Source of the DNA: Acidobacteriota bacterium
Lineage (GTDB): Bacteria > Acidobacteriota > Thermoanaerobaculia > Gp7-AA8
Length of the DNA stretch: 64,000 nt
Direction of reading: 5' to 3'
Assembly (NCBI GenBank): GCA_021781455.1
Contig: JAJXWV010000078.1
Span: 3,991-67,990 of the forward strand
Shown one piece after another: positions 4,462-21,295 of this stretch (position 1 is the first letter of the stretch; each line of letters starts with the position of its first letter). The translations under genes and the position numbers were made by a program. The notes under the pieces were generated by a model, which did not search any database, had not been told where the DNA came from, and saw nothing but the letters and a program-made list of their open reading frames with translations.

Positions 4462-4515
4462 GGCGGCCGCAGTCCATGCACGAGAGTTGCTGTGCTGTTA
4501 GAGAAGGAGGAGACG

Positions 4516-4946: not shown

Positions 4947-4954
4947 ACGTGTAG

Positions 4955-6884: not shown

Positions 6885-8453
6885 TCATGCCGTCGCTTCC
6901 ACATCGATGTTGAATCTCCTGACGAAGATCTGCTGCAGCTCCTCCACGCGGATCGGCTTCGTGAGATGCGCGTCGAAACCGGCCGCCGTGGCCTTGTCCT
7001 TGTCGTCGGCCTGGCCGAACCCGGTCAGCGCGATCAGCAGGATCGGATCGGACAGGTCCTCCCGCACGCGCCGCGCCACTTCGTAACCGTCGAGGCCGGG
7101 CATGCCGATGTCGATGATGGCCACGTCGGGACGGCTCTCCGTGATCCGGCGCAACCCGCTGTGGCCGTCCGAGGCCGTTTCCACGAGGTGCCCGAGCTTC
7201 TTGAGCTTGAGCTGCAGCAGGTCGCGGATGTCGGCGTTGTCGTCGACGATGACGATGCGCCGGGTGGCGCAGACGAGCTCCGCCGCCGTCGGCCGCGAGG
7301 GCGCCGCCGCCGGCAGGACCGCCTGTTCTTCCGCCAGCGGAAGGGTGACCGTGAAGGTGCTCCCCTGGTCCAGCCCCGGGCTTCGAGCCTCGACCTCTCC
7401 GCCGTGAAGCTGCACGAGAGTCCGCACGAGATGCAACCCGATGCCCATGCCTCCCTGAGCGCGTCCGATGGCGTTCTCGGCCTGGCTGAACAACTCGAAG
7501 ATCGAGTCGATGCGCTGCCGCGAGATGCCCACGCCGGTATCCGAGACCACGATGGCCGCCTTCCCCTCGCGCTTTTCCGTCCGGACCGCGATGCGACCGC
7601 CGGCGGTGGTGTACTTGAGAGCGTTGGTGATCAGGTTCGTGATGATCTGCTCGACGCGCAAGGCATCCGCGTGCACGACCAGAGGCTCGTCGGCGGCCTG
7701 GAAGCTGAGGCCGATCTCGCGCCGGGAGCTGTCGCCCTGCTGCGACTCCACACATTGCCGGACCACGGAGCTGAGCTCGAGCAGGCCGAGCTTCAAGGCG
7801 ATCTTCCCGGTGGTGATGCGCGACAGGTCGAGCAGATCGTCGACCAGACTGGAGAGATGGTGGGCCTGCCGCTCGATGCGCTCGGCATGCTGGGCATCGA
7901 GGGTGGCCGTCAGGGGATCGACCATCTGCGCGGCCAGGACGATCGCGCCTAACGGATTGCGCAGCTCGTGCCCCAGGATCGCCAGGAAGCGGTCGCGCTC
8001 GGTGATGCGGTCCTCGAGCTTGGCCAGAAGGTCGCGGATCTCGTATTGACGCGTCCGGGCCCTGGCCACCGCCTGAACGATGCTCACCACGCTCTTCATT
8101 CGCACCGGCCGGTCGACCAGCGTGACGTTGGCGCGCGGCCCGAGCTCCTCGAGCCGGCGCAGATAGCGGTGATCCGAATCGGGCCCAGTAAAGATCACGA
8201 TCGGGAAGTCGGACCACAAGGGCTGGTCGTCGATGAAGCTGCGCAGCGTCCGCACCACCGGCGGAACGAGGACTTCCTCGGTCGTCAGAAGCGCCAGGGA
8301 TTCGTTCCCCAGCCCCCGCTCCAGCTGCGAAACGTGCGGCACTTCGCCGGACGCCACGCCCGCGGCCTGCAGCACCCCCTTCAACAGCTCCGCGTCACGA
8401 CGGACCGGAGTGCAGATCAGTGCGGGCGAAGAGTGGACCGCCTGTTCGATCAT
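6885..8453 (-). CDS. Hybrid sensor histidine kinase: N-terminal pseudo-receiver, HisKA, HATPase_c, C-terminal canonical receiver
   Basis: H-box ILGHELRNPLGAI. ATPase N/G boxes ITNLITNALKYT, VSDTGVGI. C-terminal receiver with DDN…VAIIDIGMPGLDG…LTKP. The N-terminal ~130 aa is receiver-like but has T in place of the acceptor Asp (LALLTTEE). Confidence 0.85.
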   Translation of the reverse strand: MIEQAVHSSPALICTPVRRDAELLKGVLQAAGVASGEVPHVSQLERGLGNESLALLTTEEVLVPPVVRTLRSFIDDQPLWSDFPIVIFTGPDSDHRYLRRLEELGPRANVTLVDRPVRMKSVVSIVQAVARARTRQYEIRDLLAKLEDRITERDRFLAILGHELRNPLGAIVLAAQMVDPLTATLDAQHAERIERQAHHLSSLVDDLLDLSRITTGKIALKLGLLELSSVVRQCVESQQGDSSRREIGLSFQAADEPLVVHADALRVEQIITNLITNALKYTTAGGRIAVRTEKREGKAAIVVSDTGVGISRQRIDSIFELFSQAENAIGRAQGGMGIGLHLVRTLVQLHGGEVEARSPGLDQGSTFTVTLPLAEEQAVLPAAAPSRPTAAELVCATRRIVIVDDNADIRDLLQLKLKKLGHLVETASDGHSGLRRITESRPDVAIIDIGMPGLDGYEVARRVREDLSDPILLIALTGFGQADDKDKATAAGFDAHLTKPIRVEELQQIFVRRFNIDVEATA

Positions 8454-8478
8454 GGCGCGGCTCTTTCTCCCCCGATGC

Positions 8479-9963
8479 TCAAGGCGCGCCCATCCCTAAC
8501 GGCGGGTTCACTTCTTCGATGACCGGCGTGCCGGAAAGGACGCCGCGGAATCGCGTGAGCGCCGAGCCGATCTTGATCCCGTGCGCGGTGATCTGCAGCT
8601 CGCGAATCGAGGTCTCGTGAGCGCCGCTCCGCTTCTTGATCACCGAAATCGCCTTCCGGACCTGCCCCTGCGCTTCGAAATACCGGAGAAGAACCACGGA
8701 GTCGGCCAGATAGCTGATGTCCACGGTCGTCATCATCTGGCTACCGAGAAGACCGTGCTGCGCGAACACGAGAATCGTGGCGATGCCGTGCTGTCCGAGA
8801 AACGCCAGCAGCTCGTGCAGGTGGAGAAGGAGGTACTTCTCCTCGGGCATGGCATTGAGATAGCCGTTCAGGCTGTCGATGATCAGGACGCGCACGTCGT
8901 GATGCTCGACGGCCTCGCGAACCAGTTGCGCGAACTCGCCCGGCTGCAGCTCCGCCGGATCGACCTGCTGCACCATGATCTTTCCTGCCGCCACGAGCTC
9001 GGTCAGGTTGTAGCCGATGGCGTCGGAGCGATTGAACAGCGTGGTCAGGCTCTCGTCGAACGTGAAGAAGGCCGCGCCCTCGCCGCGCTGTGCCGCCGCC
9101 ACCGCGTACTGAGTGGCCAGCGCCGACTTCCCCGATCCGGCCGGACCCATGATCAGCGTGCTGGTGCCGCGGTCGAGGCCGCCGCCGAGAAGCGAGTCGA
9201 CTTCCGGGATCCCGCTGGAGACGAAGCTCTGCATGACGCGCATGCGCGACTCCGCCGCCACCAGGCGCGGGTAAACGACGATGCCCCCGGTGATGATGTT
9301 GAAATCGTGGTAGCCGGCGCGGAACTTCAGTCCGCGCACTTTCACCATCTGCAGCCGCCGGCGGGCCATGCCGTAATTCGGAGTGAAGCGCTCCATCTCC
9401 AGCACGCCGTGAGGGACGCTCTGCAGCTGCATGTCCTTCACGTCGGAGGTGCGGTCGTCGAGCAGCAGCGCCGTGATCCTGCGGGAATCGAAGAACTGCT
9501 TCAGGGCCAGGATCTGCTTCCGGTAGCGCAGAGAGCTCTGCGCCAGCAGACGAATCTCGGAGAGCGAGTCGAGCACCACCCGGTCGGGCGCGGCCTCGTC
9601 GATGGCGTCGAGCATCTTCTTGACCGCCGGACCGAGCTCGATCTCCGAGGCCTGGAAAATCGTGGAGTCTTCCTCGGCCAGCTCGTCCTCTCCGACCAGC
9701 TGCTCGACGATCTGGATGGGATCGAGATTCCATCCGTGCGATCGGGCCACGGCCCGCAGGTCGCGTTCCGATTCCGACATGGTGATGTACAGACCCCGCT
9801 CGCCGTTCCTCGCTCCCTCGAGCAGAAACTGCAGGGAGAGCGTCGTCTTGCCGACGCCGGGGTCGCCCTGGACGAGGTAAATGTGATTGCGCGGAAAGCC
9901 GCCATTCAGGATCCGGTCGAGCCCCTCGATTCCGGTGGCGGCGGCGTCGTCTTCAAAAGACAT
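8479..9963 (-). CDS. kaiC: KaiC-family double-domain RecA-like ATPase
   Basis: Two tandem KaiC/RadA-like domains, each with a Walker A (GDPGVGKTTLSLQF; GPAGSGKSALATQY), Walker B and catalytic Glu. 494 aa. AAGGAG before the ATG. Confidence 0.85.
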   Translation of the reverse strand: MSFEDDAAATGIEGLDRILNGGFPRNHIYLVQGDPGVGKTTLSLQFLLEGARNGERGLYITMSESERDLRAVARSHGWNLDPIQIVEQLVGEDELAEEDSTIFQASEIELGPAVKKMLDAIDEAAPDRVVLDSLSEIRLLAQSSLRYRKQILALKQFFDSRRITALLLDDRTSDVKDMQLQSVPHGVLEMERFTPNYGMARRRLQMVKVRGLKFRAGYHDFNIITGGIVVYPRLVAAESRMRVMQSFVSSGIPEVDSLLGGGLDRGTSTLIMGPAGSGKSALATQYAVAAAQRGEGAAFFTFDESLTTLFNRSDAIGYNLTELVAAGKIMVQQVDPAELQPGEFAQLVREAVEHHDVRVLIIDSLNGYLNAMPEEKYLLLHLHELLAFLGQHGIATILVFAQHGLLGSQMMTTVDISYLADSVVLLRYFEAQGQVRKAISVIKKRSGAHETSIRELQITAHGIKIGSALTRFRGVLSGTPVIEEVNPPLGMGAP

Positions 9964-10063
9964 CGCTGTTTCTCCTTGTGGTGCGACCCGTTGGTGGTTC
10001 TCTTTTCAAAATCCCCGCCCACCGGCACGAGAGATGCTCTCGGAGATTTCGGGAGGCCGCCGG

Positions 10064-11002
10064 ATGGCGTCATCCACCGCAGTCAAAATTCAAAATCCAA
10101 GCCGACTCGACCTTTTGCGCGAGGCGCACCTTCTCGGACCTGCGAACGGCGAAGCCTTCGACCGGCTGACCCGGATGGCCTCGAGGCTTCTCGATGCGCC
10201 GGGCGCGCTGATCTACCTGGCCGGGGAAGGGCACGGGTTCTACGGAAGTGTCATTGGAGGCGTTGCGGCGCCGCATGCTGACGTCGGGGGCGAAGGCCTT
10301 CTGCAGCGGGCGATACGCTCTCCGGCTGCGGTGGCCATCGATGACATCCATGCGGCGGGGATCGTCTCCGATCCTCTGCTCGGCGACTTCCATGCGCAGG
10401 CCTTTCTCGGTGCGCCTCTCGTCGTTCGCGGAATCGCCCTCGGCTCGTTCATCGTCGTCGACGTCCGGCCGCGGCACTGGTCGGAGCCGGAGATCCGCCT
10501 GATCGGCAGGCTCGCGCAGTCGGCGGCCGGCGAGATCGAGCTTCGTCTGGCCGCAACGGCAGTGGAGAGCTCGCGCGAAGGGACGCCGAAAGAAGCCTCG
10601 GCGAGCAACCGCCGCCGCGTCCTCATTGCCGAAGACGACGCGCCGATGCGAAAGCTCATCGTGCACTGCCTCGCCGGCGACGATTACGAAATCGAGGAGG
10701 CCCACGACGGGCGGGAGACCCTGGAGATCCTCCGGAAGCAACGGGTGGACGCCCTGGTTCTCGACCTGATCATGCCCGATCTCTCCGGCTGGGACGTCCT
10801 GCAGAAGCGCACCGAGGACGAGCGTCTGCGCCAGATTCCGGTGATCGTGGTCAGCGGCCGGCGCGGCCCCGACATCGCCCGAGCCGTGGCCTTCGGAATC
10901 TCGGGACTCCTGCCGAAGCCGTTCGAGGCCGGCGACCTGCGCGAGCTGGTCCGGTCGTGCCTGACCGAGAATCGAGCCGGCGGCCGCATCGCGGCGCACT
11001 GA
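10064..11002 (+). CDS. GAF-domain response regulator (GAF + canonical receiver)
   Basis: N-terminal GAF-like region (…GALIYLAGEGHGFYGSV…FLGAPLVVRGIALGSFIVVD…) followed by a receiver with AEDD…LVLDLIMPDLSGWD…LPKP. Start chosen at MASSTAV after GGGAGG; the ORF-track N-terminus would overlap kaiC. Confidence 0.7.
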   Translation: MASSTAVKIQNPSRLDLLREAHLLGPANGEAFDRLTRMASRLLDAPGALIYLAGEGHGFYGSVIGGVAAPHADVGGEGLLQRAIRSPAAVAIDDIHAAGIVSDPLLGDFHAQAFLGAPLVVRGIALGSFIVVDVRPRHWSEPEIRLIGRLAQSAAGEIELRLAATAVESSREGTPKEASASNRRRVLIAEDDAPMRKLIVHCLAGDDYEIEEAHDGRETLEILRKQRVDALVLDLIMPDLSGWDVLQKRTEDERLRQIPVIVVSGRRGPDIARAVAFGISGLLPKPFEAGDLRELVRSCLTENRAGGRIAAH

Positions 11003-11280
11003 TTCTTCAGGAGTCGTCGCGCGTCTTGTCGGGACGCACCGGGGACAGGCCGGGCAGATCGGGCATCATCGGCGGCAGTGGTGGTGGCTCCGGCGGAGGG
11101 AGCACCGGTTGCACGTCGGGACCGTCCGGTATGTTGAGGATGTCGATCTCCGGACCCTCGAATGGCCCAGGTCGACAACACCGTCGACGCAACCACGACC
11201 CTTCGCTCGATTCTGACGACGGCCGGCGTGCGCGATCGCTCCTCGCTCAAGGTGATCCAGCCCGAATAGCAGCGTCGCCG

Positions 11281-11345
11281 CCTGTCCCACCCGGGGGGCC
11301 TCTGAGGACAGGCTGGAAAGCCTGTCCCACACGGGGGGCACACGT
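11281..11345. repeat. REP-like element: GACAGGCT-GGAA-AGCCTGTC hairpin flanked by two CCTGTCCCACMCGGGGGG copies
   Basis: Read directly. A related element (CAGGCTGGAAAGCCTG x2 + CCCCACACGGGG) occurs at 49350-49410. Confidence 0.6.
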
Positions 11346-11399
11346 CAGTTTGTCCCCACGATGACCGGAGCGGTGGAAAGCGTCTAGCATCCTCAATCA

Positions 11400-13568
11400 A
11401 TGTCGTCCACGTCCGCCGGGATCCAGATCGTCGAGTTCATTGCTGCGCTTTCGCGCGCCTGGAAAAAGCTCGCCGCCTACCCGCCCGGCCATCCCGAGGT
11501 CGTCACCTCGCTCCAGGCGCTCAATCAACGGCTGGCCGAACTTCGCGGACCGGCCGGCGAAGTCGTTCTCGGCGTGGGCGCCGATGCGCTCGTCTACGGC
11601 GCCCTCGACATCACCTCCGCCGGCGCCCGGAAGCTCGCCCAGGCGCTCTACTCCCGCGGAGTGGCCGTGCTGCGCCTCGGAGCCGACACCAACATGCAGG
11701 AGATCGAAACGTTCCTGCGCCTTCTCGGCACGGGCGGCCCCGTTGATCCGAGGCGCGTGCTCTGGGAGGAGCTGACCGCCAACGGGGTGATCAACATCAA
11801 CCTGCAGCCGGTCAGTTACGGCACCGTCCAGGTCACGGACGGAGTGAGGGAACATCCGGAGAAGGAAGAAGAACGTTCGCTGTGGGACGAAGTGCTGAGG
11901 GCGCTCCTGAACAATCAGCAGTTCTCGGCGACATTGCGCGACCTGCCGCCGCACATCACTTCGGCCGACAAGCTGGCGAAGATGATCGCGGAGTACGCAG
12001 CGACGCCCGAGGAACAGGCCAGGCCGGTCGATGCGCAGGCCAGCTCCGGAATTCAGTTGCGCGAGCGCAGCGAAGAGGCCTTCCACCGCTTTTTCTTTCA
12101 GACCGTCGGCCACCACATTGCCACGATGACGGGGCAGAAAAAGCAGAACTCGCTGGAGCAGGCGGTGCAGTTGCTGCGCAGCCTGCCGGAGCAGCTCCGG
12201 CGTCCGCTGATCCGGGCCATCGCCGAGGCGCTGGCCTCGGACGACGGCTCGGCGGCGCTCCTGCGCGATTTCGCGAGTGAGCTTCCGAACGACGAAGTGC
12301 TCGACGCCCTTCGCTATCTCTCCTCGATGGACAAGCTGTCCAATCAGTCGCTGACGCTGCTGCATTCGATGTCGACGACGGAGGCCTCGCGGACCCAGGC
12401 GGCATCGAAAGAAGTGCTCGCGGATGTCATTCGTTTGTTCGGTGAAGACGACGTCGCTCGATTCAACCCCACCGAGCACGATGTGACGTTGAAGAGGATC
12501 TCGGTCGAGATTCCAATCGTTCCACCCGAAGCGATGCAGGGAATCGAGCCGGCCGGCGACCGCATCGATCCGGCCGCGAATGTCGAGATCCTGCGGCACT
12601 TCTTGGACGTGCTGCTCCTCCTCCTGGTGGGCCGTGACACGACGGCACCGCCCGCGACGACTCTGGCCCATCTGGAAGGAATCTTCCCGCCCCTTCTGGC
12701 AGCCGAGGAATACGACCATCTCGGGATCGTGGTGCAGCGCCTTCTCGGAGTGGCGACGTCGACTCCAGACGAGGAAGTGAAGACCGCCGCGCACGCATCG
12801 CTCCGCCGCATCAGCGACCTGATCGTCGAGCAGGCCACGGGTGCGTCGGACGAAGGCCTCACGAAGATGCAGCGGCTGATCGCCGCGCTTGACGTTCATG
12901 CGCGCCAGAGCTTCCTGGAAAAACTGGCACTGGAGAGCAACCGCTCACGACGACGGCGGCTCTTGAACTACATCGCCGCGCAGGGGACGTCGATCGTCCC
13001 TCAGGTGATCGCCTATCTGAACGACGAGCGATGGTACGTCGTGCGGAACATGATCGTGCTGCTCCGTGCGGTGAAGGACCAGACCTCGCTGCCCGAGATA
13101 CGCAGGCTGGCGCGCCATTCCGATCTTCGCGTGAGGATGGAGGCGCTGAAGAGTCTTTTCGCCATGGACGCGAACGTCCCGCCGACTCTCCTGGACAACC
13201 TCTTCAACGACACCGATCCGAAGGTCGGACAGACCGCGGTCGCACTGGCCGGAAACTACGCCATCAAAGAAGCCGTCGACCCACTCCTGCGGATCATCCA
13301 GGACCACGATTACCTCGGCGCCAGGCGGCCGTTGCGCGTCAAGGTCATCAGCGCACTCGGCGAAATCGGCGATCCGCGTGCCCTCGCGGCGATGCAGAAG
13401 TTCTTCACTTTCTCTTTCCTCCCCTGGCCGCCGCGGGAGGAACGCTATGCGGCCTGGCAGTCGCTCGCCGGATATCCGCCGGAAGCGCGGAAGCCACTCG
13501 TGGAGTCCGGGCTCAAGTCGTCTGACGGTCATGTGCGCGAGATCTGTTCGCGGATGAGGAACAGCTGA
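11400..13568 (+). CDS. Large protein with a novel N-terminal 'YPPGHP' domain, central helical region and C-terminal HEAT/PBS-lyase-like repeats
   Basis: 722 aa. The C-terminus has tandem HEAT-like repeats (…DLRVRMEALKSLFAMD…DPKVGQTAVALAGNYAIKEAVDPLLRII…RVKVISALGEIGDPRALAAM…). The N-terminal ~110 aa aligns with the N-terminus of the next gene. Confidence 0.6.
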   Translation: MSSTSAGIQIVEFIAALSRAWKKLAAYPPGHPEVVTSLQALNQRLAELRGPAGEVVLGVGADALVYGALDITSAGARKLAQALYSRGVAVLRLGADTNMQEIETFLRLLGTGGPVDPRRVLWEELTANGVININLQPVSYGTVQVTDGVREHPEKEEERSLWDEVLRALLNNQQFSATLRDLPPHITSADKLAKMIAEYAATPEEQARPVDAQASSGIQLRERSEEAFHRFFFQTVGHHIATMTGQKKQNSLEQAVQLLRSLPEQLRRPLIRAIAEALASDDGSAALLRDFASELPNDEVLDALRYLSSMDKLSNQSLTLLHSMSTTEASRTQAASKEVLADVIRLFGEDDVARFNPTEHDVTLKRISVEIPIVPPEAMQGIEPAGDRIDPAANVEILRHFLDVLLLLLVGRDTTAPPATTLAHLEGIFPPLLAAEEYDHLGIVVQRLLGVATSTPDEEVKTAAHASLRRISDLIVEQATGASDEGLTKMQRLIAALDVHARQSFLEKLALESNRSRRRRLLNYIAAQGTSIVPQVIAYLNDERWYVVRNMIVLLRAVKDQTSLPEIRRLARHSDLRVRMEALKSLFAMDANVPPTLLDNLFNDTDPKVGQTAVALAGNYAIKEAVDPLLRIIQDHDYLGARRPLRVKVISALGEIGDPRALAAMQKFFTFSFLPWPPREERYAAWQSLAGYPPEARKPLVESGLKSSDGHVREICSRMRNS

Positions 13569-13571
13569 GCC

Positions 13572-14657
13572 ATGGAACGCCTCGCCAGCATCATCGCCGC
13601 GGCCATCAACATGGTGGCACTGTATCCGCCGAATCACCCACGTGTGCAGCACGCCATCCTGGAGGTTCTGCAGGCCTTTCGAGAAGCGCTGCAGACCACG
13701 GGGGAGGAAGCGGCCTCGTATCTGCTCGTCGGCGACGACCTGCTGGCAGCCAACCAGGTGATCCGCGAAACGACACTTCCGGTCCGCGAATTCATCGGGG
13801 TGCTGAAGCAGCGTGGAGTGGAGAGCCTGGCACTCCTGCCGGGCGCCGATGAGCAGGAGATCATGCACCTGGTCACCGGCCTGGCCACGGGAGAAGCGCT
13901 GGAGTCGTCCACGCACGTCCAGCTCGGCACCGTTCACCTGGTCATGGACGAGAAACCGAAGGACGAAGAGCTGCGGCAGGACCTCGTCACGCAGTTCGAG
14001 CTCATGCGAGAGGCCTGGGCGCGCTTTCGCGTGGAACGAAAGCTTCCCGTCGATCAGCTGGAAGAGCTGGTGTGGAGCCTGATCGATTCGGTGGGGTCCA
14101 CGGCCCGGGCCATGTTGCCGCTGGCGAGATTGAGAGAGCTCGACGAGTACACGTTCGTCAACGCCATCAACGTTTCGCTGCTGGTCCTCGCCCAGGCCCG
14201 CTCACTCGGGATCTGGGGGCCCATGCTGCACGCCTTCGGCATGGCCGGCCTCCTCCACGACATCGGCAAGATGTCGATTCCGCCGAGCATTCTGAACAAA
14301 GCCGGCAAGCTGGACGACGACGAGTGGAAGGTCATGATGAGCCATCCATCCGAGGGAGCGTCGTACCTGTTGCAGATGGAGGGAGCGCCGCCGCTGAGCA
14401 TCATCGTGGCGTTCGAGCACCATCTCCGGCATGACGGCCGGCCCAACTACCCGCTCATCCGCGGGCGTCACAGTCCGCACCTGGCCAGTCGCATGACGGC
14501 CATCGCCGATGCCTACGACGGCATGTGCGCGACGCGGCCGTATCAGACCTCGGTCAGCCGCACCGCGGCCATGGAAGTCCTGAAGGCCAGGGCCCAAACG
14601 TTCTACGACCCGATGCTCGTAGCGAATTTCATCCGGATCGTCGGCGCAAACGCCTGA
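13572..14657 (+). CDS. HD-GYP domain c-di-GMP phosphodiesterase with the same novel N-terminal 'YPPxHP' domain
   Basis: HD-GYP signature HDIGK…EHHLRHDGRPNYP. The N-terminus (IIAAAINMVALYPPNHPRVQHAILEVL…) is homologous to the N-terminus of the preceding gene. Only 3 bp separate it from the upstream stop. Confidence 0.8.
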   Translation: MERLASIIAAAINMVALYPPNHPRVQHAILEVLQAFREALQTTGEEAASYLLVGDDLLAANQVIRETTLPVREFIGVLKQRGVESLALLPGADEQEIMHLVTGLATGEALESSTHVQLGTVHLVMDEKPKDEELRQDLVTQFELMREAWARFRVERKLPVDQLEELVWSLIDSVGSTARAMLPLARLRELDEYTFVNAINVSLLVLAQARSLGIWGPMLHAFGMAGLLHDIGKMSIPPSILNKAGKLDDDEWKVMMSHPSEGASYLLQMEGAPPLSIIVAFEHHLRHDGRPNYPLIRGRHSPHLASRMTAIADAYDGMCATRPYQTSVSRTAAMEVLKARAQTFYDPMLVANFIRIVGANA

Positions 14658-14787: not shown

Positions 14788-16914
14788 ATGACCACGACTG
14801 AAATGAGTCCCGTCCCTGATCATGCGCTCAGGACGGAAGCCCCGCCGCGTCAGCACGCCGTCGGGGCCGGACATCCTCACCCTCTCGGCGCGCGTGTCGA
14901 TCGGCAGGGCGTCAACTTCTCAGTCTTCTCCCAGAACGCCACGGGAGTCGAGCTGCTGCTCTTCGAGGGGCACGATTCGCCGCAGCCGTACCAGACGATC
15001 CGCCTCGACCCGGTGCAGAACCGCTCGTACGGCTTCTGGCATTGCCACGTGGCCGGGCTGAAGGCCGGCGCCCATTACGCCTATCGCGTCGAAGGGGAGT
15101 GGTCGCCGGAAGCGGGCCATCGCTTCAACCGCAACAAGGTCCTGATCGACCCGTGGTCCTTCGGCAATAGCAACACGCTCTGGGTCCGCGGAGACGCCTG
15201 CAGCATGGACGACAACGTCGCCACCTCGATGCGCAGCGTGGTCATCGACGCCGGCTCCTACGACTGGGAGGGCGATCGTCCGCTGGACCGCCCCATGCGC
15301 GAATCGATCATCTACGAGATGCACGTCCGCGGCTTCACGCGATCGGCGCGCATCGCCCATCCCGGAACCTTTCGCGGCGTGATCGAGAAGATTCCTTATC
15401 TGCGAGAGCTCGGCATCACCGCCGTGGAGCTGCTCCCGATCATGGAGTACGACGAGAAGGAGATCCTCCGCCTGGCGCCCGACGGCACTCCCCTCACCAA
15501 CTACTGGGGCTACAGCACCATCGGATTCTTCGCGCCCACCAGCAACTACTGCGTCTCTTCGGAGGCCGGCGGCCAGCTCGACGAGTTCCGCGACATGGTC
15601 AAGGCCCTGCATAAGGCCGGCATCGAAGTCATCCTCGACGTCGTCTTCAACCACACCAGCGAAGGCAACCACCTCGGGCCGACCATCAACTACAAGGGCT
15701 TCGCCAACTCCATCTACTACCACCTCTCGCCGTTGAACCGCGCTTACTACATGGATTACAGCGGCTGCGGCAACACGATGAACTGCAATCACCCGCTCGT
15801 GCAGAAACTGATCGCCGAGAGCCTGGAGTTCTGGACGCGCGACATGCACGTGGACGGCTTCCGCTTCGACGAGGGATCGATCCTCTCCCGCGGTGAAGAC
15901 GGCGCCCCCATGGCCCACCCGCCCATCATCTGGCGCATCGAGTTCGACGAGGCCCTGGCGGACACGAAAGTCATCGCCGAAGCGTGGGACGCGGCCGGCC
16001 TTTACCAGATCGGCTACTTCCCGGGGTTGCGCTGGGGCGAGTGGAACGGCCGCTATCGCGACGCCATCAGGCGCTTCGTGGCCGGCCAGCCCGGTATCGT
16101 CGGCGAGGTGGCCACGCGCATTGCCGGGAGCTCCGATCTCTACCAGCAGAACGGTCGCGCGCCTGCAAACAGCGTCAACTTCATCACCTGCCACGACGGC
16201 TTCACGCTCAATGACCTCGTCAGCTACAACGACAAGCACAATGAGGCCAACGGCGAGGACAGCCGCGACGGAGTCAACGAGAACTGCAGCTGGAACTGCG
16301 GAGTCGAAGGGCCGACCGAGGATCCTGCCGTCGAAGCCCTGCGCAACCGGCAGGTGAAGAACTTCGCGGCCATCCTGCTGCTGTCCGAAGGCGTGCCCAT
16401 GATCCTCGGCGGAGACGAGATCCGCCGGACCCAGCACGGGAACAACAACGGTTACTGCCAGGACAACGAGACCAGCTGGTTCGACTGGCGACTGTTGAAC
16501 GAACACTCCGACGTCTTCCGCTTCTTCAGCCACATGATCGCCTTCCGCAGACAGCAGGTGCCCCTCAAGCGCCTCTCGTTCTTCACCGGTCGCGTCAACG
16601 AGCGCGGTCTTCCCGACATCGCCTGGCACGGCTGTGCGCTCGGCAGTCCCGGATGGCACGACCCGTGGTCCCGCGTGCTCTCCTACACCATGGGCGGCGA
16701 GGGGAACGACCTGGACCTGCACGTCATCCTCAACATGTCGGACGAGACCCTCGACTTCGAATTGCCGAAACCCGGAAAGCGCTCGTGGCATCGCTTCGTC
16801 GACACCTCTCTGCCGTCGCCGCATGACATCTGCGAGCCGGGCCAGCAGCCAGTCGTGCCGGATGGCAAGGTCGCCGTCACGCCGCGCACGGTGGTCGTGC
16901 TCGTGTCGCGGTGA
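14788..16914 (+). CDS. glgX: Glycogen debranching enzyme (isoamylase-type GH13)
   Basis: N-terminal CBM48-like region plus GH13 catalytic motifs (DVVFNHT, GFRFDEG, EAWD, CHDGFTLND). 708 aa. Strong RBS. Confidence 0.85.
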   Translation: MTTTEMSPVPDHALRTEAPPRQHAVGAGHPHPLGARVDRQGVNFSVFSQNATGVELLLFEGHDSPQPYQTIRLDPVQNRSYGFWHCHVAGLKAGAHYAYRVEGEWSPEAGHRFNRNKVLIDPWSFGNSNTLWVRGDACSMDDNVATSMRSVVIDAGSYDWEGDRPLDRPMRESIIYEMHVRGFTRSARIAHPGTFRGVIEKIPYLRELGITAVELLPIMEYDEKEILRLAPDGTPLTNYWGYSTIGFFAPTSNYCVSSEAGGQLDEFRDMVKALHKAGIEVILDVVFNHTSEGNHLGPTINYKGFANSIYYHLSPLNRAYYMDYSGCGNTMNCNHPLVQKLIAESLEFWTRDMHVDGFRFDEGSILSRGEDGAPMAHPPIIWRIEFDEALADTKVIAEAWDAAGLYQIGYFPGLRWGEWNGRYRDAIRRFVAGQPGIVGEVATRIAGSSDLYQQNGRAPANSVNFITCHDGFTLNDLVSYNDKHNEANGEDSRDGVNENCSWNCGVEGPTEDPAVEALRNRQVKNFAAILLLSEGVPMILGGDEIRRTQHGNNNGYCQDNETSWFDWRLLNEHSDVFRFFSHMIAFRRQQVPLKRLSFFTGRVNERGLPDIAWHGCALGSPGWHDPWSRVLSYTMGGEGNDLDLHVILNMSDETLDFELPKPGKRSWHRFVDTSLPSPHDICEPGQQPVVPDGKVAVTPRTVVVLVSR

Positions 16915-16942
16915 AGATTCGAGGCGGCGTAGCCGCCGACAC

Positions 16943-17124
16943 AATTTAGCGGCGGCCGTCAGGCCGCCGCCCGCTCAGACAGCCCTTGGTCCGAGCGCGC
17001 GAAGCACGCGACAGATCCTCGTGTCTGTTCCTCCAGACTGCTGTCGGACACTTCGTGCCCTCGTACGCTGGGTGCGATTGCTTATTCCGGCGGCCTGACG
17101 GCCGCCGCTAAATTCTGGCGGCGG
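16943..17124. mobile_element. MITE-like non-coding element: 27-bp perfect terminal inverted repeats (AATTTAGCGGCGGCCGTCAGGCCGCCG) around a 128-bp core
   Basis: Arm 1 at 16943-16969 and arm 2 at 17098-17124 are exact reverse complements. Additional short GC hairpins flank at 16921-16936 and 17127-17139. No ORF inside. Confidence 0.4.
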
Positions 17125-17149
17125 CTTTGCCGCCTATGCGAATGCGGCA

Positions 17150-17215
17150 GCGCACAGCAGTGATAGCACTCAGGACTCAGCACTCAGCACTCAGCACTCA
17201 GGACTCAGCACTCGT
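17150..17215. repeat. Tandem CTCAG(G)ACT / CAGCACT-type repeats upstream of the molybdenum hydroxylase operon
   Basis: ctcaggactcagcactcagcactcagcactcaggactcagcactcg read directly. The same motif forms a hairpin at 36420-36480. Confidence 0.6.
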
Positions 17216-17310
17216 CACCGCATCGCATCGGCTGGTGACGATCGTTACGACCTCGACCGCGCCACGGGCGAACCATGGACGTGCATTCCATCGTCCGATC
17301 GGAGGTCCTC

Positions 17311-17946
17311 ATGTCGGATTCCACCAAGGGAGTTTCCCGCCGCGGATTCCTCAAGGGCGCGGGGAGCGCCGCCGCCGCCACGGCGCTGCTCGACTCGGCG
17401 GTCCTCACGGTGCGTGAGGCGACCGCGCAGATCACCGGTCCTCCGGTCTACGGCCCCGGCCGCACGGAACTGGCGCTCCACGTGAACGGTTCCGAGCGCA
17501 CCGTTCTCGTCGAGCCGCGCACCACCCTCGCCGCCGCCTTGCGCGACGAGCTCGATCTGACCGGCACGAAGGTGGTCTGCGATCGCGGCGCCTGCTCGGG
17601 ATGCACGGTCTGGATCGACGGCCTTCCGGTGGCCTCCTGCATGACCCTGGCGATCGACGCCGCCGGCAGGAAGATCACGACGATCGAGGGTCTGGCCACG
17701 GGCGACAAGCTGCACCCGGTGCAGGAGGCCTTCATCGAAAAGGACGCCATGCAGTGCGGCTTCTGCACTCCCGGCATGGTGATGACCGCGGCGGCGCTGC
17801 TGGAGCGGAATCCCGATCCCACGCTCGACGACGTGAAGGAGGCCGTGAGCGGCAACCTCTGCCGCTGCGCGGTCTACCCGCAGGTCTTCGAGGCCACTCT
17901 GGCCGCGGCGAAGAAGCGGAAGGCTAGCCAGATCGCAGGTAGCTAG
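17311..17946 (+). CDS. Molybdenum hydroxylase (xanthine dehydrogenase/aldehyde oxidoreductase family) small [2Fe-2S] subunit with Tat signal peptide
   Basis: The twin-arginine motif SRRGFLKG follows MSDSTKG. There are two [2Fe-2S] Cys clusters (CDRGACSGCTV; QCGFCTPGMVM…CRC). GGAGG RBS. The earlier ORF-track Met is rejected. Confidence 0.85.
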   Translation: MSDSTKGVSRRGFLKGAGSAAAATALLDSAVLTVREATAQITGPPVYGPGRTELALHVNGSERTVLVEPRTTLAAALRDELDLTGTKVVCDRGACSGCTVWIDGLPVASCMTLAIDAAGRKITTIEGLATGDKLHPVQEAFIEKDAMQCGFCTPGMVMTAAALLERNPDPTLDDVKEAVSGNLCRCAVYPQVFEATLAAAKKRKASQIAGS

Positions 17947-18008
17947 TGCGCTTTGCCAAAGACTTGCGCTCCGCCCTCTGCGCTCCAGACATCGAGGAGT
18001 GACCGATC

Positions 18009-20324
18009 ATGACCGAAGAAACAAGCAGGAAGACCCGCCCCGAGACGCTGACCGTCGGGATCGCGGGATCGAGGCTCACCACGACGCAGCGGGAAGTCCC
18101 AGCCAACGATCCGCCACCGCTGCCGCCTAACAGCGATCTCCACGTCGTCGGCAAGCGCGTTCCGCGCATCGACGGCGCCCGCATCGTCACCGGCGCGGCC
18201 CGATACACAGCCGACATCCGGCTGCCGGGCATGCTCTACGCGCGGATGATCACCTCGCCGCATCCGCACGCGCGCATCGCCTCGATCGACACCGCGGCCG
18301 CTGCGGCCTGTCCTGGAGTGCGCGCCGTGCACGTGCTCGATCGCTACGAGAAGGATCCCATCGTCCGTTATGCCGGACAGCCGGTCGCCGCCGTCGCTGC
18401 CGTCTCGCAGGCGGCGGCCGACGAGGCCGCGCGCCTGGTGCGGATCGCCTGGGAGCCGCTCCCCTTCGTCGTCGACGTCGAGTCTGCACGCGCCGCCGAT
18501 GCTCCGCTCGTCTATCCGCCGAATCCCGACGACAAGGTGCCGCGCAAGGGCAATGTCCGCGGTCCGGTGAAGCGAGGACCGCGCGGCAAGCCCGCCGGAG
18601 ACGCCCTCGACGCTCTCGCCAATTCCCCCGTCGTCGTCGACCACACCTATCGCACGCAGGTCCAGACGCACGCCACGCTCGAGACTCACGGCGTCGTCGC
18701 CGACTGGCAGCCCGGCTCCGCGATCGTCTACGCATCCACGCAGGCCACGGTCGCCTTTCGCGACGAGCTCGCCGAGGTGTTCGGAATCCCCAAGGCCCGC
18801 ATCCGCATCATCACCGAGTACATGGGCGGCGGCTTCGGCTCGAAGCTCGGAATGGGACCGTATGGCGTGCTCGCCCTTCATCTCTCGAAAAAGGCGGGCA
18901 GGCCGGTCCGCCTGATGCTCGATCGGCGCGAGGAGCAGCGCTGCACCGGCAACCGCCCCAGCTCCGTCCAGCACCTCCGCCTCGGCGCAACCAGAGACGG
19001 CAAGCTGACGGCCATTCACCTGTCGAGTTACGGCACCGGCGGCGTGGGCGGCGGCGCCGGCAGCGCCGGCCCCGCGCAGAACATGTACGACTGCCCGAAC
19101 GTCGAGACCGAAGAAGCGGACGTGTTCACGCACGCCGGCCCGTCGGCGGCCATGCGCGCTCCCGGCCATCCGCAGGGTTGCTTCGCGCTCGAACAGTCGA
19201 TCGATGCAGTGGCCGAGAAGCTCGGCATCGACCCTCTGCGACTGCGCGACCTCAACGACAGCAACGCCGCCCGCCGCGAGGAACGGCGCATCGGCGCCGA
19301 GATGATCGGCTGGTCTGCCCGCCACAAGCCGGGCGCCGACAAGGGAACCATCCGGCGCGGCATCGGCGCCGCGCAGTCGATCTGGTACCGCTTCGTGCGG
19401 CTCGACTCCGCCTGCGAAGTGCGGCTGGACCGCGAAGGGTCGGTGGAGATCGTCAGCGCCGTCCAGGACATCGGCACCGGCATCCGTACCGTCCTCGCGC
19501 AGGTCGTGGCCGAAGAGCTGGGCATCGATCCGCGCGGGGTCATCGTCAGGATCGGCGACACCTCCTTCCCCGCCGGACCCTCGTCGGGCGGCAGCCTGAC
19601 CACGGGCTCGATCACGCCCCCGGCGCGCAACGCCGCTCACGGCGTGCGCACGCAACTCCTCGAGGTCGCCGCTCCGCTGCTGAAGGCGGATCCTGCCCAT
19701 CTCGACCTGCGCGAAGGACGCGTGGTGGTCAAGAGCGACCCCTCGCGCAGCATCTCCCTGCGCGAGGCGGCGGCGAAGATCGGCCCCGACCAGATCGCCG
19801 TTCGCGCGCGCCGAAGCGAGGATTACGGCACCCCGCCCCTGCCGCCCGGTCAGACCTCCGGAATGGGCCTGGAGATCTACGGCGGCGTCCAGTTCGCCCA
19901 GGTGGCCGTCGACACGGGAACCGGCGCGATCAAGGTGGAGCGGGTGGTGGCGGTGCACGACTGCGCGCGTCCGATGAACCCGCTCACCATCGAGAGCCAG
20001 ATCAAGGGCGGCATCATCCAGGGAATCTCGTATGCCCTGTTCGAGGACCGCACGCTCGACGCGAACGCCGGGCTGATGGTCAATCCGAACCTGGAGATGT
20101 ACAAGATCGCCGGCTCGCGCGAAACGCCGGTCATCGACGTTCACCTGCTCGAGGAATACATCGGCCGCACTTCGACCGACGCCGGCGGCATCGGCGAGCC
20201 CGCCACGATTCCGACGGCCGCGGCCGTGGCCAACGCCGTCCACAACGCCCTCGGCGTGCGCATGCTGGAGCTGCCGATGACCCCTGACCGCGTGCTCAGT
20301 GCACTGCGCACCGTGAGGAGCTGA
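18009..20324 (+). CDS. Molybdenum hydroxylase large molybdopterin-binding subunit
   Basis: 771 aa with N-terminal a/b-hammerhead and MoCo-binding regions typical of the XDH/CoxL/PaoC family (GKRVPRIDG…, GGGFGSK…, catalytic Glu region …DCARPMNPL…). Confidence 0.85.
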   Translation: MTEETSRKTRPETLTVGIAGSRLTTTQREVPANDPPPLPPNSDLHVVGKRVPRIDGARIVTGAARYTADIRLPGMLYARMITSPHPHARIASIDTAAAAACPGVRAVHVLDRYEKDPIVRYAGQPVAAVAAVSQAAADEAARLVRIAWEPLPFVVDVESARAADAPLVYPPNPDDKVPRKGNVRGPVKRGPRGKPAGDALDALANSPVVVDHTYRTQVQTHATLETHGVVADWQPGSAIVYASTQATVAFRDELAEVFGIPKARIRIITEYMGGGFGSKLGMGPYGVLALHLSKKAGRPVRLMLDRREEQRCTGNRPSSVQHLRLGATRDGKLTAIHLSSYGTGGVGGGAGSAGPAQNMYDCPNVETEEADVFTHAGPSAAMRAPGHPQGCFALEQSIDAVAEKLGIDPLRLRDLNDSNAARREERRIGAEMIGWSARHKPGADKGTIRRGIGAAQSIWYRFVRLDSACEVRLDREGSVEIVSAVQDIGTGIRTVLAQVVAEELGIDPRGVIVRIGDTSFPAGPSSGGSLTTGSITPPARNAAHGVRTQLLEVAAPLLKADPAHLDLREGRVVVKSDPSRSISLREAAAKIGPDQIAVRARRSEDYGTPPLPPGQTSGMGLEIYGGVQFAQVAVDTGTGAIKVERVVAVHDCARPMNPLTIESQIKGGIIQGISYALFEDRTLDANAGLMVNPNLEMYKIAGSRETPVIDVHLLEEYIGRTSTDAGGIGEPATIPTAAAVANAVHNALGVRMLELPMTPDRVLSALRTVRS

Positions 20325-20326
20325 CC

Positions 20327-21295
20327 ATGGATCGCTTCGAATACGTGAGCGCAACGACGGTGGCCGAGGCTCTGGCCCAGCTCGGTGAAGGACGCCAGGT
20401 GAAAGCCGGCGGGATCGACCTGCTGGACCGGATGAAGGAAGGCCTCTCCTCGCCGAAGCGGATAGTCAACATACGTACTATCTCGGAATTGGACGGCGTG
20501 GAGATCGACGCCTCCGGCCTGACGATCGGGCCGACCACCACCCTGGCCACCGTGGCCGCGCATGAGCCGCTCCGCGATTCGTATCGGGCCATCGCCGATG
20601 CGGCGCGCGCCGCCGCCACGCCCCAGATCCGCAATGTGGCCACGGCAGGGGGCAACCTGCTGCAGCGGCCGCGCTGCTGGTACTTCCGCGAACGCGATTT
20701 CGATTGCCTGCGCAAGGGCGGCCAGGGATGCTTCGCGCAGGACGGAGCGAACCGCTATCACGCCATCTTCGGCAACGACCTCTGCGCGATGGTGCATCCG
20801 TCCGACCTCGCCGTTCCTCTGACCGCCTTTGACGCCGTTCTCGACCTGACCAGCGCCAAAGGAACGCGAAAGGTTCCGATCTCCACGTTCTACGTCGGGC
20901 CGGAGACCGATCCCACGCGCGAGACCGACCTGCACCGCGACGAGCTCCTGACGGCCATCCGCGTCCCGGCACCACCGCCCGGCACCCGCTCCGCCTACTT
21001 CAAACAGAAGGAAAAGGAGAGCGCCGATTGGCCGCTCGCCGGCGTGGCGGTGGCGCTGCAGATTTCCAGCGGAGTCGTCCAGCGCGCCTCGGTCGTCCTC
21101 GGCGCGGTGGCCGCCACTCCCTGGAGATCGAAACCCGCCGAAGCCGCGCTGACCGGGCGCGCCATCGACGAGGCCGCGGCGAGGCGCGCCGCAGCAGCGG
21201 CTGTCGCGGATGCGAAACCGCTCGCCTGGAACGGATACAAAGTCGCGGTCCTCGAGACCATCATCCGCAGAACCATCCTGGAGGCGGCATCGTGA
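20327..21295 (+). CDS. Molybdenum hydroxylase FAD-binding (medium) subunit
   Basis: CoxM/XdhB-like FAD-binding domain (…AGGNLLQRPRCWYFRE…) followed by a CO-dehydrogenase-flavoprotein C-terminal-like domain. 3 bp after the large-subunit stop. Confidence 0.8.
   Translation: MDRFEYVSATTVAEALAQLGEGRQVKAGGIDLLDRMKEGLSSPKRIVNIRTISELDGVEIDASGLTIGPTTTLATVAAHEPLRDSYRAIADAARAAATPQIRNVATAGGNLLQRPRCWYFRERDFDCLRKGGQGCFAQDGANRYHAIFGNDLCAMVHPSDLAVPLTAFDAVLDLTSAKGTRKVPISTFYVGPETDPTRETDLHRDELLTAIRVPAPPPGTRSAYFKQKEKESADWPLAGVAVALQISSGVVQRASVVLGAVAATPWRSKPAEAALTGRAIDEAAARRAAAAAVADAKPLAWNGYKVAVLETIIRRTILEAAS

Follow-up and report, generated by a model that had tools for sequence, protein, structure and literature searches.

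A homologous N-terminal domain on adjoining HEAT-repeat and HD-GYP-class genes of Acidobacteriota: a candidate scaffold–phosphodiesterase pair

Introduction

Of the c-di-GMP phosphodiesterases, the HD-GYP class is the less well understood. Many of these enzymes carry unrecognised N-terminal regions, as the census literature records. In PmGH of Persephonella marina (PDB 4MCW; GAF-HD-GYP), helices a1, a2 and a5 of the N-terminal GAF domain lie on one face of its beta-sheet with a short a3 and a4 on the other, and the dimer is built by this GAF domain together with the long helix alone (PMC4159591). In another architecture, exemplified by Bd1817 (PDB 3TM8), the N-terminal part is DUF3391, a ~120-residue domain of unknown function that nearly always occurs with HD-GYP, is joined to it by a signalling helix and folds as four beta-strands followed by two long helices (Galperin & Chou preprint). 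HD-GYP proteins may also act with partner proteins, as in the RpfG–GGDEF complexes of Xanthomonas, which control pilus motility (PMC4159591).

Here we describe two adjoining genes of an Acidobacteriota bacterium, A and B, whose products share an N-terminal domain and continue into a HEAT-repeat solenoid and an HD-GYP-class domain, respectively, and we compare them with these systems.

Results

Arrangement of the gene pair

In the window, meaning the whole 64,000-nucleotide stretch of DNA that was analysed, A and B are present exactly as the original prediction had described them, as adjoining open reading frames 3 bp apart (Table 1), and the peptides that it quoted were located at A 25–32 (AAYPPGHP), B 16–23 (ALYPPNHP) and B 282–294 (EHHLRHDGRPNYP). 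The spacer between the TGA of A and the ATG of B reads GCC and, with an SD-like element inside the end of A, the junction has a sequence layout consistent with translational coupling. At nearly all other A/B loci the two genes are separated by 2–15 nt or overlap, in some cases through overlapping stop and start codons, and the widest gaps are 54 nt (L023/L024) and about 90 nt (L021). The host genome has a G+C content of 65%.

Table 1. Coordinates of genes A and B and of their features within the window.
Feature	Position	Strand	Description
Gene A	11400..13568	+	722 aa ORF: YPxxHP N-domain, acidic helical middle, basic C-terminal HEAT repeats
A N-domain	11400..11819	+	Residues 1-140; from AF2 secondary structure and hhalign to B N-domain
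YPPGHP motif of A	11478..11495	+	Residues 27-32; Y27, P28, H31, P32 invariant in 42 orthologs
A middle region	11847..12899	+	Residues ~150-500; helical, acidic, with flexible low-confidence stretches (AF2)
A HEAT-repeat region	12900..13565	+	Residues ~501-722; confident solenoid, basic
A/B junction	13556..13574	+	SD-like GAGGAA 13556-13561 within A end; TGA 13566-13568; B ATG 13572
Gene B	13572..14657	+	361 aa ORF: YPxxHP N-domain, helical linker, HD-GYP-class domain
B N-domain	13572..13946	+	Residues 1-125; AF2 model m513a46099033
YPPNHP motif of B	13623..13640	+	Residues 18-23; Y18, P19, H22, P23 invariant in 41 orthologs
B linker	13962..14141	+	Residues 131-190; helical and conserved, placed like PmGH a5 / Bd1817 S-helix
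B HD-GYP-class domain	14142..14654	+	Residues 191-361; from alignment to PmGH and column statistics
Asn197 codon	14160..14162	+	Position of PmGH His189 metal ligand
Variant 'GYP' motif HHLRHDGRPNYP	14418..14453	+	Residues 283-294; canonical form HHExh(D/N)GxGYP

A shared N-terminal domain

A and B begin with a homologous alpha/beta domain of ~115–135 residues, which we call the YPxxHP domain, so that the shared N-terminal module of the original prediction proved real. A single BLASTP comparison of A17–112 with B8–107 gave 32% identity over 101 residues (E 4e-5), and hhalign paired the two families with a probability of 93.2% (E 3e-7) when full-length ortholog alignments were used and of 96.7% (E 3.9e-10, 96 columns) when the alignments were trimmed to the N-domain. 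Additionally, an N-domain HMM built from either family matches the N-domain of the other in most loci. The AF2 model of the B N-domain is a confident, compact alpha/beta fold (pLDDT 91.5, pTM 0.84) that runs a1 (2–17), YPPNHP turn, a2 (23–43), three strands (48–53, 56–59, 62–64), a3 (69–80), a strand (83–88), a4 (94–106) and a last strand (116–120). The A model repeats this order identically, with a1 (3–26), YPPGHP turn, a2 (32–49), strands at 55–59, 64–66 and 69–71, a3 (74–85), a strand (88–93), a4 (99–110) and, after an extra helix (121–127), the last strand (133–137). That the likeness arose by chance or composition, both N-termini being helical and rich in Ala and Leu and the genome 65% G+C, is so improbable that we regard it as refuted: pairwise identity is just 32% and a short motif also present in TPR proteins supplies part of the score, but the profile–profile alignment extends well past that motif, the HMMs match across families and the element order agrees between independent AF2 models.

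In line with the original prediction, which recognised no family here, Pfam (2025 copy) has nothing in the N-terminus of A or B even at E<=1, NCBIfam (2026) has no match in either, and Foldseek of the N-domain model against PDB returned nothing significant (best E 0.3, TM<=0.27). No described family was found for the domain in Pfam-A, NCBIfam, PADLOC or PDB (InterPro, CDD and AFDB lay outside the search), nor did we find a paper on it within the searchable literature. Structure prediction, which had been proposed as a check, gave the two N-domains a confident fold with a common element order.

The motif itself, put forward as novel in the form AxYPPxHP, turned out to be the hallmark of the helix-turn-helix junction in TPR_10/TPR_12 repeats of the kinesin-light-chain / NPHP3 type, where it reads (A/S)LYPxxHPxV(A)xxL. 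The correspondence reaches an hhalign probability of 92–94% over 25–27 columns, and the N-domain profile retrieved proteins with 10–25 such repeats; however, the likeness ends at ~27 residues, after which the N-domain continues with beta-strands and no further repeats. A TPR_10/TPR_12 repeat array was ruled out on these grounds, a single hairpin followed by strands, and because no Pfam TPR model matches the N-domain. Since Y-P-x-x-H-P, invariant across both the A and B families, corresponds to the inter-repeat turn, its invariance is probably structural, and the models suggest a TPR-like helical hairpin packed on a five-stranded beta/alpha unit. Beyond the turn, the conserved residues differ between the A and B families and include no common conserved polar residues, which argues against a single common ligand and is more in keeping with complementary surfaces than with a ligand pocket common to both.

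The N-domain of B falls in the size class of DUF3391 and is likewise joined to HD-GYP by a helix, and Bd1817 residues 97–244 align weakly to B 124–270, that is, to the linker and HD region. Unlike DUF3391, it starts with two helices followed by the beta/alpha part, and its conserved residues are different. An assignment to DUF3391 was rejected, as PF11871 matches none of the window proteins or family members checked and the order of secondary-structure elements is reversed.

Gene B encodes a variant HD-GYP-class protein

The C-terminal part of B, which has more than 120 full-length orthologs (52–79% identity), belongs to the HD-GYP class by profile and structure over all ~170 residues of the domain. 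Pfam places HD_5 (2e-15) and HD (5e-10) at residues 200–348, NCBIfam returns a NosR-type c-di-GMP PDE (2e-19), and PDB matches include V-cGAP3, PA4781 and, as the best match to the catalytic domain, PmGH (4mcw; E 4e-19 with the single sequence, 3e-30 with the family profile). Like PmGH, B combines an N-terminal alpha/beta domain in the ~130–150-residue range, a helical connector and a C-terminal HD-GYP domain in which most metal and catalytic residues are conserved; it differs in having no sequence-detectable GAF and in the active-site changes described below, and no scaffold partner gene with a paralogous domain has been described for PmGH.

The original prediction had called this domain canonical, a description that does not hold for its signature motif or its metal ligands. 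In place of HHExh(D/N)GxGYP, the window copy of B has HHLR(Y/F/H)DG(Q/R)PNYP (DGxPNYP at the GYP end), as do 119 of its 121 close orthologs, with E changed to L, a one-residue insertion and G changed to N; Y and P are invariant, and some divergent members keep GYP. Against the PmGH set (H189, H221, D222, H250, H276, H277 and D305, with E185 for the third metal), the window copy is incomplete: it keeps H229, D230, H258, H283, H284 and D313, along with D191, K233, D316 and R322, and has Asn197 at the position of His189. His occupies that position in 148 of 154 family members, Asn being confined to the window protein and the five proteins closest to it (P0001–P0004 and P0059). The six other ligand positions are invariant across the family, whose full set suffices for a binuclear site; the E185 equivalent is Y193, which makes a binuclear site more probable than a trinuclear one. 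The substrate-contact residue R314 of PmGH is conserved as R322, but the equivalent of K317 is Gln. For B, c-di-GMP is a putative substrate, an assignment weakened by the variant GYP motif, the Gln at the K317 position and, in the window copy, the lost metal ligand. Asn197 may leave that copy with reduced or altered activity.

It could also be that the HD-GYP has degenerated in the lineage of the window, B serving as a receptor or adaptor for cyclic dinucleotides instead of as an enzyme, with the HEAT partner as its output. Such a role would suit the restriction of Asn197 to these six proteins, the loss of activity in PmGH H189A (PMC4159591), the replacement of the family-conserved His190 by Leu in the window protein and the precedent of Bd1817, an inactive HD-GYP (PMC4159591). 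Yet the six other His/Asp ligands remain in place, as do D191, K233 and D316. Asn, moreover, is able to bind metals and may still allow a binuclear site to form, and the rest of the family keeps its His; we consider degeneration very unlikely.

Gene A encodes a HEAT-repeat protein with a scaffold-like fold

The HEAT repeats predicted for the 722-residue product of A were borne out by a Pfam HEAT_2 match at residues ~535–668 (7e-21; 74.7 bits against a gathering cutoff of 27.7) and by a solenoid fold. Matches to alphaRep reach 7e-18, and the model of the whole protein (pLDDT 77.9) matches the HEAT/ARM scaffolds PP2A A subunit and importins, showing A to have a scaffold-like fold. Full-length orthologs number more than 120 (40–81% identity), and in 42 of them the middle region is consistently acidic (mean net charge −18) and the HEAT region consistently basic (mean +8, pI ~10).

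A functional analogy with the PP2A A subunit may be drawn, in that the alpha-solenoid body of A resembles PP2A-A, importins and alphaRep most closely by structure, and A is encoded together with a metallo-phosphoesterase, the two presumably being produced in stoichiometric amounts. There is, however, no homology past the generic repeat fold, and PP2A-A binds its catalytic subunit through HEAT repeats, whereas the candidate interface of A is the shared N-terminal domain.

The two genes occur together across divergent loci

An exhaustive search with the N-domain profile yielded 501 clusters (50% identity) at E<=1e-10, in which all members with a name are Acidobacteriota, mostly Thermoanaerobaculia. 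The latter lives in soil and sediment and is represented here almost wholly by metagenome-assembled genomes. In all ~29 loci examined, A is followed by an adjacent B on the same strand; these comprise 21 of 21 Thermoanaerobaculia loci, the window and the divergent loci L023/24, L025, L028, L029, L030 and probably L027. Independent match lists for A and B point to the same pairing, with at least 30 apparent shared contigs. A lack of co-occurrence, named beforehand as evidence against a specific pairing, is decisively contradicted, and since the flanking genes differ among the loci, selection acts on the pair.

The idea of a common sensor placed on different effectors fared less well. Among the best 147 representatives we found essentially two architectures and two rare ones, and not a broad GGDEF/EAL/HK set of outputs. 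One rare form, P0313/P0397, consists of two N-domains and nothing else, and a 2xNdom gene adjoins an MshEN-T2SSE ATPase and pilins; the other, P0369, reads GGDEF-AAA_16-Ndom-Ndom-HEAT (GGDEF-STAND-2xNdom-HEAT), and such A-type modules fused to GGDEF-STAND have no adjacent HD-GYP. The GGDEF fusion and the MshEN neighbour strengthen the link to c-di-GMP independently of B, and the tandem N-domains suggest that the domain works as a pair. The proximity of YPxxHP-domain relatives to pilus genes recalls RpfG. There, however, the interaction runs through the GYP motif and involves GGDEF partners, whereas the present pair has a HEAT protein as partner and would use its duplicated N-terminal domain as the interface.

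Discussion

The best-supported reading of these data, in our view, is a scaffold–enzyme complex of A and B that controls a second messenger. Specifically, we propose that Thermoanaerobaculia-type Acidobacteriota encode a coupled two-gene module in which the N-domains pair a HEAT scaffold with an HD-GYP enzyme, to which we assign a probability of roughly 0.45. The product of A would be a ~720-residue alpha-solenoid scaffold and that of B a ~360-residue HD-GYP-class cyclic-dinucleotide phosphodiesterase; the YPxxHP domain would be the pairing module, the N-domain of the scaffold binding that of the enzyme in an A:B complex of fixed stoichiometry, and the HEAT protein would position or gate the phosphodiesterase and so shape local c-di-GMP levels. 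Physical heteromerisation, and regulation or localisation of B by A, are plausible and gain indirect support from several observations. Tandem N-domains in single chains (P0313/P0397, P0369) are typical of domains that act as dimers and count for pairing. The strict adjacency and probable translational coupling of the two genes point the same way, and PmGH offers a precedent, its dimer being built by nothing but the N-terminal domain and helix. Moreover, in a partial Mantel analysis of 21 loci, the N-domains of A and B co-diverge when HEAT and HD-GYP are controlled for (r=0.51, p=2e-4), which is the highest r of the six domain pairs and above that of either N-domain with its own protein; since r is about 0.43–0.45 for other cross pairs as well, this signal may reflect rate or saturation effects. 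No net-charge complementarity was found between the two N-domains.

Shared regulation, or a signal common to both proteins, would produce adjacency and co-divergence even without contact, and two other accounts of the N-domain have to be considered. The domain might homodimerise A and B separately, A being a scaffold or effector in its own right, such as an adaptor that responds to c-di-GMP downstream of the enzyme, and linked to B through the pathway only. HD-GYP proteins typically homodimerise via their N-terminal parts (PMC4159591), tandem N-domains fit homotypic pairing equally, and the GGDEF-STAND-fused A-type modules lack an adjoining HD-GYP, but separate homodimers leave it unexplained that the scaffold has retained, in all divergent pairs, a paralogous copy of precisely the enzyme's N-domain, and that the N-domain of A tracks that of B more closely than its own HEAT region. 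We consider them unlikely.

Ligand sensors classically occupy this place, that of an N-terminal alpha/beta domain ahead of a signalling helix, and the weak fold matches of the modelled N-domain lean towards GAF-like ligand-binding domains. It may be a cryptic, reduced GAF-like sensor. In that case the finding would reduce to a divergent PmGH-type protein, B, whose partner gene is unusual; A would be another receptor, responding to the cytoplasmic signal that B senses or to a related one, co-regulated with B and forming no complex through the N-domain. B and PmGH have nearly the same size (361 and 369 residues) and HD-GYP position (194–355 and 192–353), the modelled element order matches that of the PmGH GAF (a1 a2, b b b a3 b a4 b, linker helix), and ~30 of the top 50 Foldseek matches in PDB, all insignificant, are GAF or IclR-effector domains of the GAF-like superfamily. 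By sequence profile, however, the N-domain is not recognisable as a GAF: neither the 42 family members nor the window proteins match Pfam GAF, GAF_2 or GAF_3 at E<=1, hhalign against the bona fide GAF of a neighbouring window gene gives a probability of 0.1%, and PmGH is absent at E<=10 from PDB searches with N-domain profiles. The insignificant best Foldseek score, the presence of five strands instead of six and the lack of common conserved polar residues to line a shared pocket add to this, and we judge a GAF-like sensor somewhat unlikely.

Returning to the scaffold–enzyme module, we tentatively extend it, with some doubt, to a new heterodimerisation (or c-di-GMP-responsive) domain that would form a PP2A-like scaffold–phosphodiesterase holoenzyme, while its sister architectures (GGDEF-STAND-2xNdom-HEAT, and 2xNdom beside MshE-type pilus ATPases) would connect it to c-di-GMP synthesis and type IV pilus control. 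Acidobacteria would then localise or gate c-di-GMP degradation through the YPxxHP domain.

One of the unrecognised N-terminal regions of HD-GYP proteins is now defined as a confident, uncatalogued domain family with hundreds of 50%-identity clusters, duplicated onto a co-encoded HEAT scaffold in an arrangement that is obligatory among the loci examined. Our literature search returned no work on c-di-GMP in Thermoanaerobaculia. Should the two copies pair, the locus would illustrate clearly, at the genomic level, that a second-messenger-degrading enzyme can have a scaffold subunit of its own; it would bear on how local specificity arises in c-di-GMP signalling, and would offer a first handle on such signalling in this lineage.

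A conserved gene pair encodes two proteins with a common N-terminal domain

The two genes, predicted to encode neighbouring HEAT and HD-GYP-class proteins 3 bp apart, were recovered as ORFs A and B (table), with the HEAT_2 family of Pfam matching A at residues ~535–668 (E 7e-21) and HD_5 and HD matching B at residues 200–348 (E 2e-15 and 5e-10). Only the bases GCC separate the TGA of A from the ATG of B, and a Shine-Dalgarno-like sequence lies within the 3' end of A. Scans for promoters and terminators near the two genes detected none, a result that is uninformative at the ~65% G+C of the window and for a non-model phylum.

Coordinates of the A–B pair, its surroundings and related loci
Feature	Sequence	Coordinates	Strand	Remark
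Hybrid histidine kinase	window	6885–8453	minus	HisKA-HATPase_c-REC
Double-domain KaiC-like ATPase	window	8479–9963	minus
GAF-REC protein	window	9887–11002	plus	listed TTG start overlaps KaiC start
ORF A	window	11400–13568	plus	722 aa
A residues ~150–722	window	11847–13565		charge dipole
GAGGAA	window	13556–13561		Shine-Dalgarno-like
ORF B	window	13572–14657	plus	361 aa
B residues 48–85	window	13713–13826		Glr1262 match
Leu190 of B	window	14139–14141
Asn197 of B	window	14160–14162
GlgX-type glycogen debranching enzyme	window	14788–16914
Molybdenum hydroxylase, 2Fe-2S subunit	window	17275–17946		TAT signal
Molybdenum hydroxylase, molybdopterin-binding subunit	window	18009–20324
Molybdenum hydroxylase, FAD-binding subunit	window	20327–21295
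Split A-type gene	L030 (GCA_024277255.1)	2824–5004		315 + 405 aa (720 total)
Partner of divergent HD-GYP	L027	3668–5593		641 aa
GGDEF-STAND fusion	L022 (GCA_041574615.1)	8001–12161		1386 aa
Tandem N-domain protein	L026	2752–3705		317 aa

The N-terminal domain claimed to be common to both proteins (N-domain) was borne out by BLASTP, in which A17–112 and B8–107 share 32% identity (E 4e-5), and by profile comparison. More than 120 full-length orthologs were gathered per protein and about 40 of each were aligned; hhalign related the full-length A and B families with 93.2% probability (E 3e-7), and the trimmed N-domains with 96.7% probability (E 3.9e-10, 96 columns). The motif Y-P-x-x-H-P is invariant in both families (Y27, P28, H31 and P32 of A; Y18, P19, H22 and P23 of B). 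Given these scores and the invariant motif, the similarity is real and far beyond chance, and a chance resemblance is refuted.

An A-type gene lies immediately 5' of a B-type gene on the same strand at 21 of 21 close-family loci and in the window, usually with a gap of 2–15 nt; 15 loci came from a B-only alignment with a strict search pattern, which biases that set towards Thermoanaerobaculia. At least 30 contigs of equal size coincide between two independent homolog lists, one for A and one for B. Pairing also extends to divergent members encoding proteins of 755 then 394 aa (L023/24, where the GYP motif is canonical), 901 then 545 aa (L025), 739 then 381 aa (L028) and 747 then 384 aa (L029). 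At L030 the A-type gene, followed by a 367-aa HD-GYP gene, is called in two parts, either a real split or a frameshift or assembly error. L027 is probably also an A–B pair: upstream of a divergent 461-aa HD-GYP lies a protein without a Pfam match that carries a degenerate 'YPENNA' motif ('FVYPENNARV') and is matched weakly by the N-domain HMMs (E ~3e-3), showing faster divergence of the scaffold partner than of the enzyme. The two genes thus clearly co-occur well beyond the window, as the original prediction needed.

The flanks of the pair vary by locus and include a Bmp/ABC transporter, a PAS-histidine kinase and, in the window, KaiC, GAF-REC and GlgX genes, among others. The signalling cluster directly upstream in the window (6885–11002) is not kept beside the pair elsewhere; the true GAF-REC start is probably further downstream, since the listed one overlaps that of KaiC. 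The downstream genes (14788–21295) seem to serve routine metabolism and to have no connection with the pair. A role in anti-phage defence was rejected, with PADLOC giving noise-level Cas3-HD matches only (E~0.01) and neighbourhoods being housekeeping and variable.

The N-domain defines an uncatalogued family

Pfam gave no match in the N-terminus of A or B even at E<=1, and NCBIfam and PADLOC added none over these regions. The 132-aa N-domain alone retrieved zero matches in a word-indexed homolog search; homologs were retrieved only with full-length queries and an exhaustive profile search. Over 1.84 billion representatives, this profile search matched 3,917 clusters at E<=1e-3, a weak tail that certainly includes TPR proteins, 501 at <=1e-10 and 18 at <=1e-30. 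All members with an organism name are Acidobacteriota, mostly Thermoanaerobaculia.

Classification of the best 147 clusters with local HMMs gave, fragments aside, two main architectures, N-domain–linker–HD-GYP (~360–470 aa) and N-domain–middle–HEAT (~700–900 aa), and two rare ones: GGDEF–AAA_16 (STAND ATPase)–N-domain–N-domain–HEAT_2 (P0369, which clusters five NCBI proteins) and two tandem N-domains with nothing else (P0313/P0397). The expectation of a module joined to different outputs is thus borne out thinly: besides HD-GYP and HEAT, the partners among these 147, fragments aside, are limited to the rare GGDEF-STAND fusion, with tandem N-domains as the one other arrangement. The GGDEF-STAND gene at L022 (P0391/P0369 cluster), whose product has two tandem YPxxHP domains, lies among three PilY1-like genes and a Y1 transposase and lacks a neighbouring HD-GYP gene. 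At L026, the gene for the tandem protein (P0397; motifs 'YSPQHP' and 'YPAGHP') immediately precedes genes for an MshEN-T2SSE ATPase, Wzy_C, T2SSF and two N_methyl pilins, and a prepilin peptidase is encoded close by, which places the tandem protein within a type IV pilus/MSHA-like cluster. MshEN is a known c-di-GMP-binding domain (see PMC12448109).

AlphaFold2 modelling of B residues 1–130 from a combined 42-sequence alignment (mean pLDDT 91.5, pTM 0.84) predicted helix 2–17, the YPPNHP turn, helix 23–43, strands 48–53, 56–59 and 62–64, helix 69–80, strand 83–88, helix 94–106 and strand 116–120. When A was modelled in full (pLDDT 77.9), residues 3–137 followed the same element order, as a shared domain predicts, with an extra helix 121–127 before the last strand; beyond them, flexible segments lead to a helical middle region and confident HEAT repeats from ~residue 500. 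In 42 orthologs of A, charge is strongly polarised between an acidic middle region, with a mean net charge of −18 (pI ~4.95), and a basic HEAT region, with a mean of +8 (pI ~10); this conserved dipole could serve autoinhibition or polyanion/nucleotide binding.

The AxYPPxHP motif itself, originally taken as novel, turned out to equal a well-known inter-repeat turn of kinesin-light-chain-type TPRs. The exhaustive search returned long proteins with 9–25 short matches to profile positions 4–44, mostly 16–44, that carry '(A/S)LYPGNHPDVANSLNNVG' at 42–45-residue spacing and are TPR_12/TPR_10/TPR_NPHP3 in Pfam; five of them (P0241, P0246, P0265, P0312 and P0346; TPR_12/TPR_10) have 10–25 copies of 'ALYPGNHPDVANSLNNVG' in tandem, joined to NB-ARC/STAND or CHAT domains. 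N-domain profiles matched the TPR repeat unit with 92–94% probability, over only 25–27 columns. The invariance of the motif is therefore most simply read as that of a structural helix cap. Pfam TPR models gave zero matches in any of the 42 N-domain members, and the rest of the domain, with its beta/alpha elements, is not TPR. A weak match of A residues 20–120 to BcsC (5xw7, E 9e-4), a TPR-containing protein, probably stems from the TPR-like motif, and a cellulose-synthase link was rejected. Also rejected was homology of the B N-domain to the Gloeobacter phycobilisome linker Glr1262 (9k9w chain a9, E 5e-9): the score sums three individually insignificant repeats (i-E 0.3–4) of a ~33-aa 'R..(L/I)SVREF(I/V)..L' segment, and the A-family profile does not reproduce it against the PDB, so that we judged it a local motif.

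HD-GYPs with N-terminal regulatory or dimerisation domains (REC, DUF3391, GAF, DUF3369, MASE) are known, as are unrecognised N-termini on many HD-GYPs (Galperin & Chou census). By sequence the N-domain is none of these, and its element order differs from that of DUF3391.

B carries a variant HD-GYP-class domain

The C-terminal domain of B clearly belongs to the HD-GYP class, its family profile matching the GAF-HD-GYP protein PmGH of Persephonella marina (4MCW) at E 3e-30, and V-cGAP3 and PA4781 as well. Mapping of PmGH residues by their roles in PMC4159591 showed conservation of D183, H221, D222, K225, H250, H276, H277, D305, D308 and R314 (B D191, H229, D230, K233, H258, H283, H284, D313, D316 and R322). 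At the position of PmGH E185, B has Tyr193, a feature it shares with HD-GYPs of the 'DxYTxxHS' type, V-cGAP3 among them, and one that suggests a binuclear metal site. The description of B as a canonical HD-GYP was nevertheless overstated, because the signature is variant, HHLR(Y/F/H)DG(Q/R)PNYP versus HHExh(D/N)GxGYP, and because the window copy has Asn197 at the position of PmGH His189. This ligand is His in 148 of 154 family members, and Asn occurs only in the window protein and its five nearest relatives (P0001–P0004, P0059); H189A abolishes PmGH activity (PMC4159591). In the window protein alone, Leu takes the place of His190, which is conserved in 40 of 41 family members.

The N-domain as a candidate pairing module

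The best-supported reading, on indirect evidence throughout, is that the N-domain is a pairing module through which A and B would associate. It is favoured by the occurrence of the domain as intramolecular tandem pairs, the apparent translational coupling of the two genes, the scaffold-like remainder of A, and the PmGH dimer, which is built solely by the N-terminal domain and its connecting helix (PMC4159591). A partial Mantel analysis of 21 loci also favours it, the two N-domains showing the highest residual correlation (r=0.51, p=2e-4, against 0.26 within A and 0.09 within B), a signal that may be a rate artefact, as other cross pairs reach 0.43–0.45; electrostatic complementarity between the N-domains of A and B was tested and none was found. 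Alternatively, the N-domain could homodimerise A and B separately.

The main rival to pairing is a cryptic, reduced GAF-like sensor, consistent with the layout that B shares with PmGH, with a compatible element order and with a weak Foldseek list dominated by GAF/IclR-like domains, but opposed by TM<=0.27 and no sequence signal for GAF. Outside the YPxxHP turn, conserved residues differ between the A and B families in the 42-sequence alignment, with D55, D56, R65, E84, R85, E96 and H115 invariant in the B family and K22, R49, D62, Y66, K78, R86 and R92 in the A family; this speaks for pairing and against one ligand pocket shared by both. A further rival would have B act as a degenerate receptor within the window's own lineage; the B family looks competent for catalysis, and in the window protein catalysis may be impaired or altered, by lineage-specific loss or change.

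Our literature search found no paper describing the N-domain family or the A–B module. What is new is the definition of an uncatalogued domain family, its duplication onto an obligatorily co-encoded HEAT scaffold, and its sister fusions to GGDEF-STAND proteins and adjacency to pilus genes.
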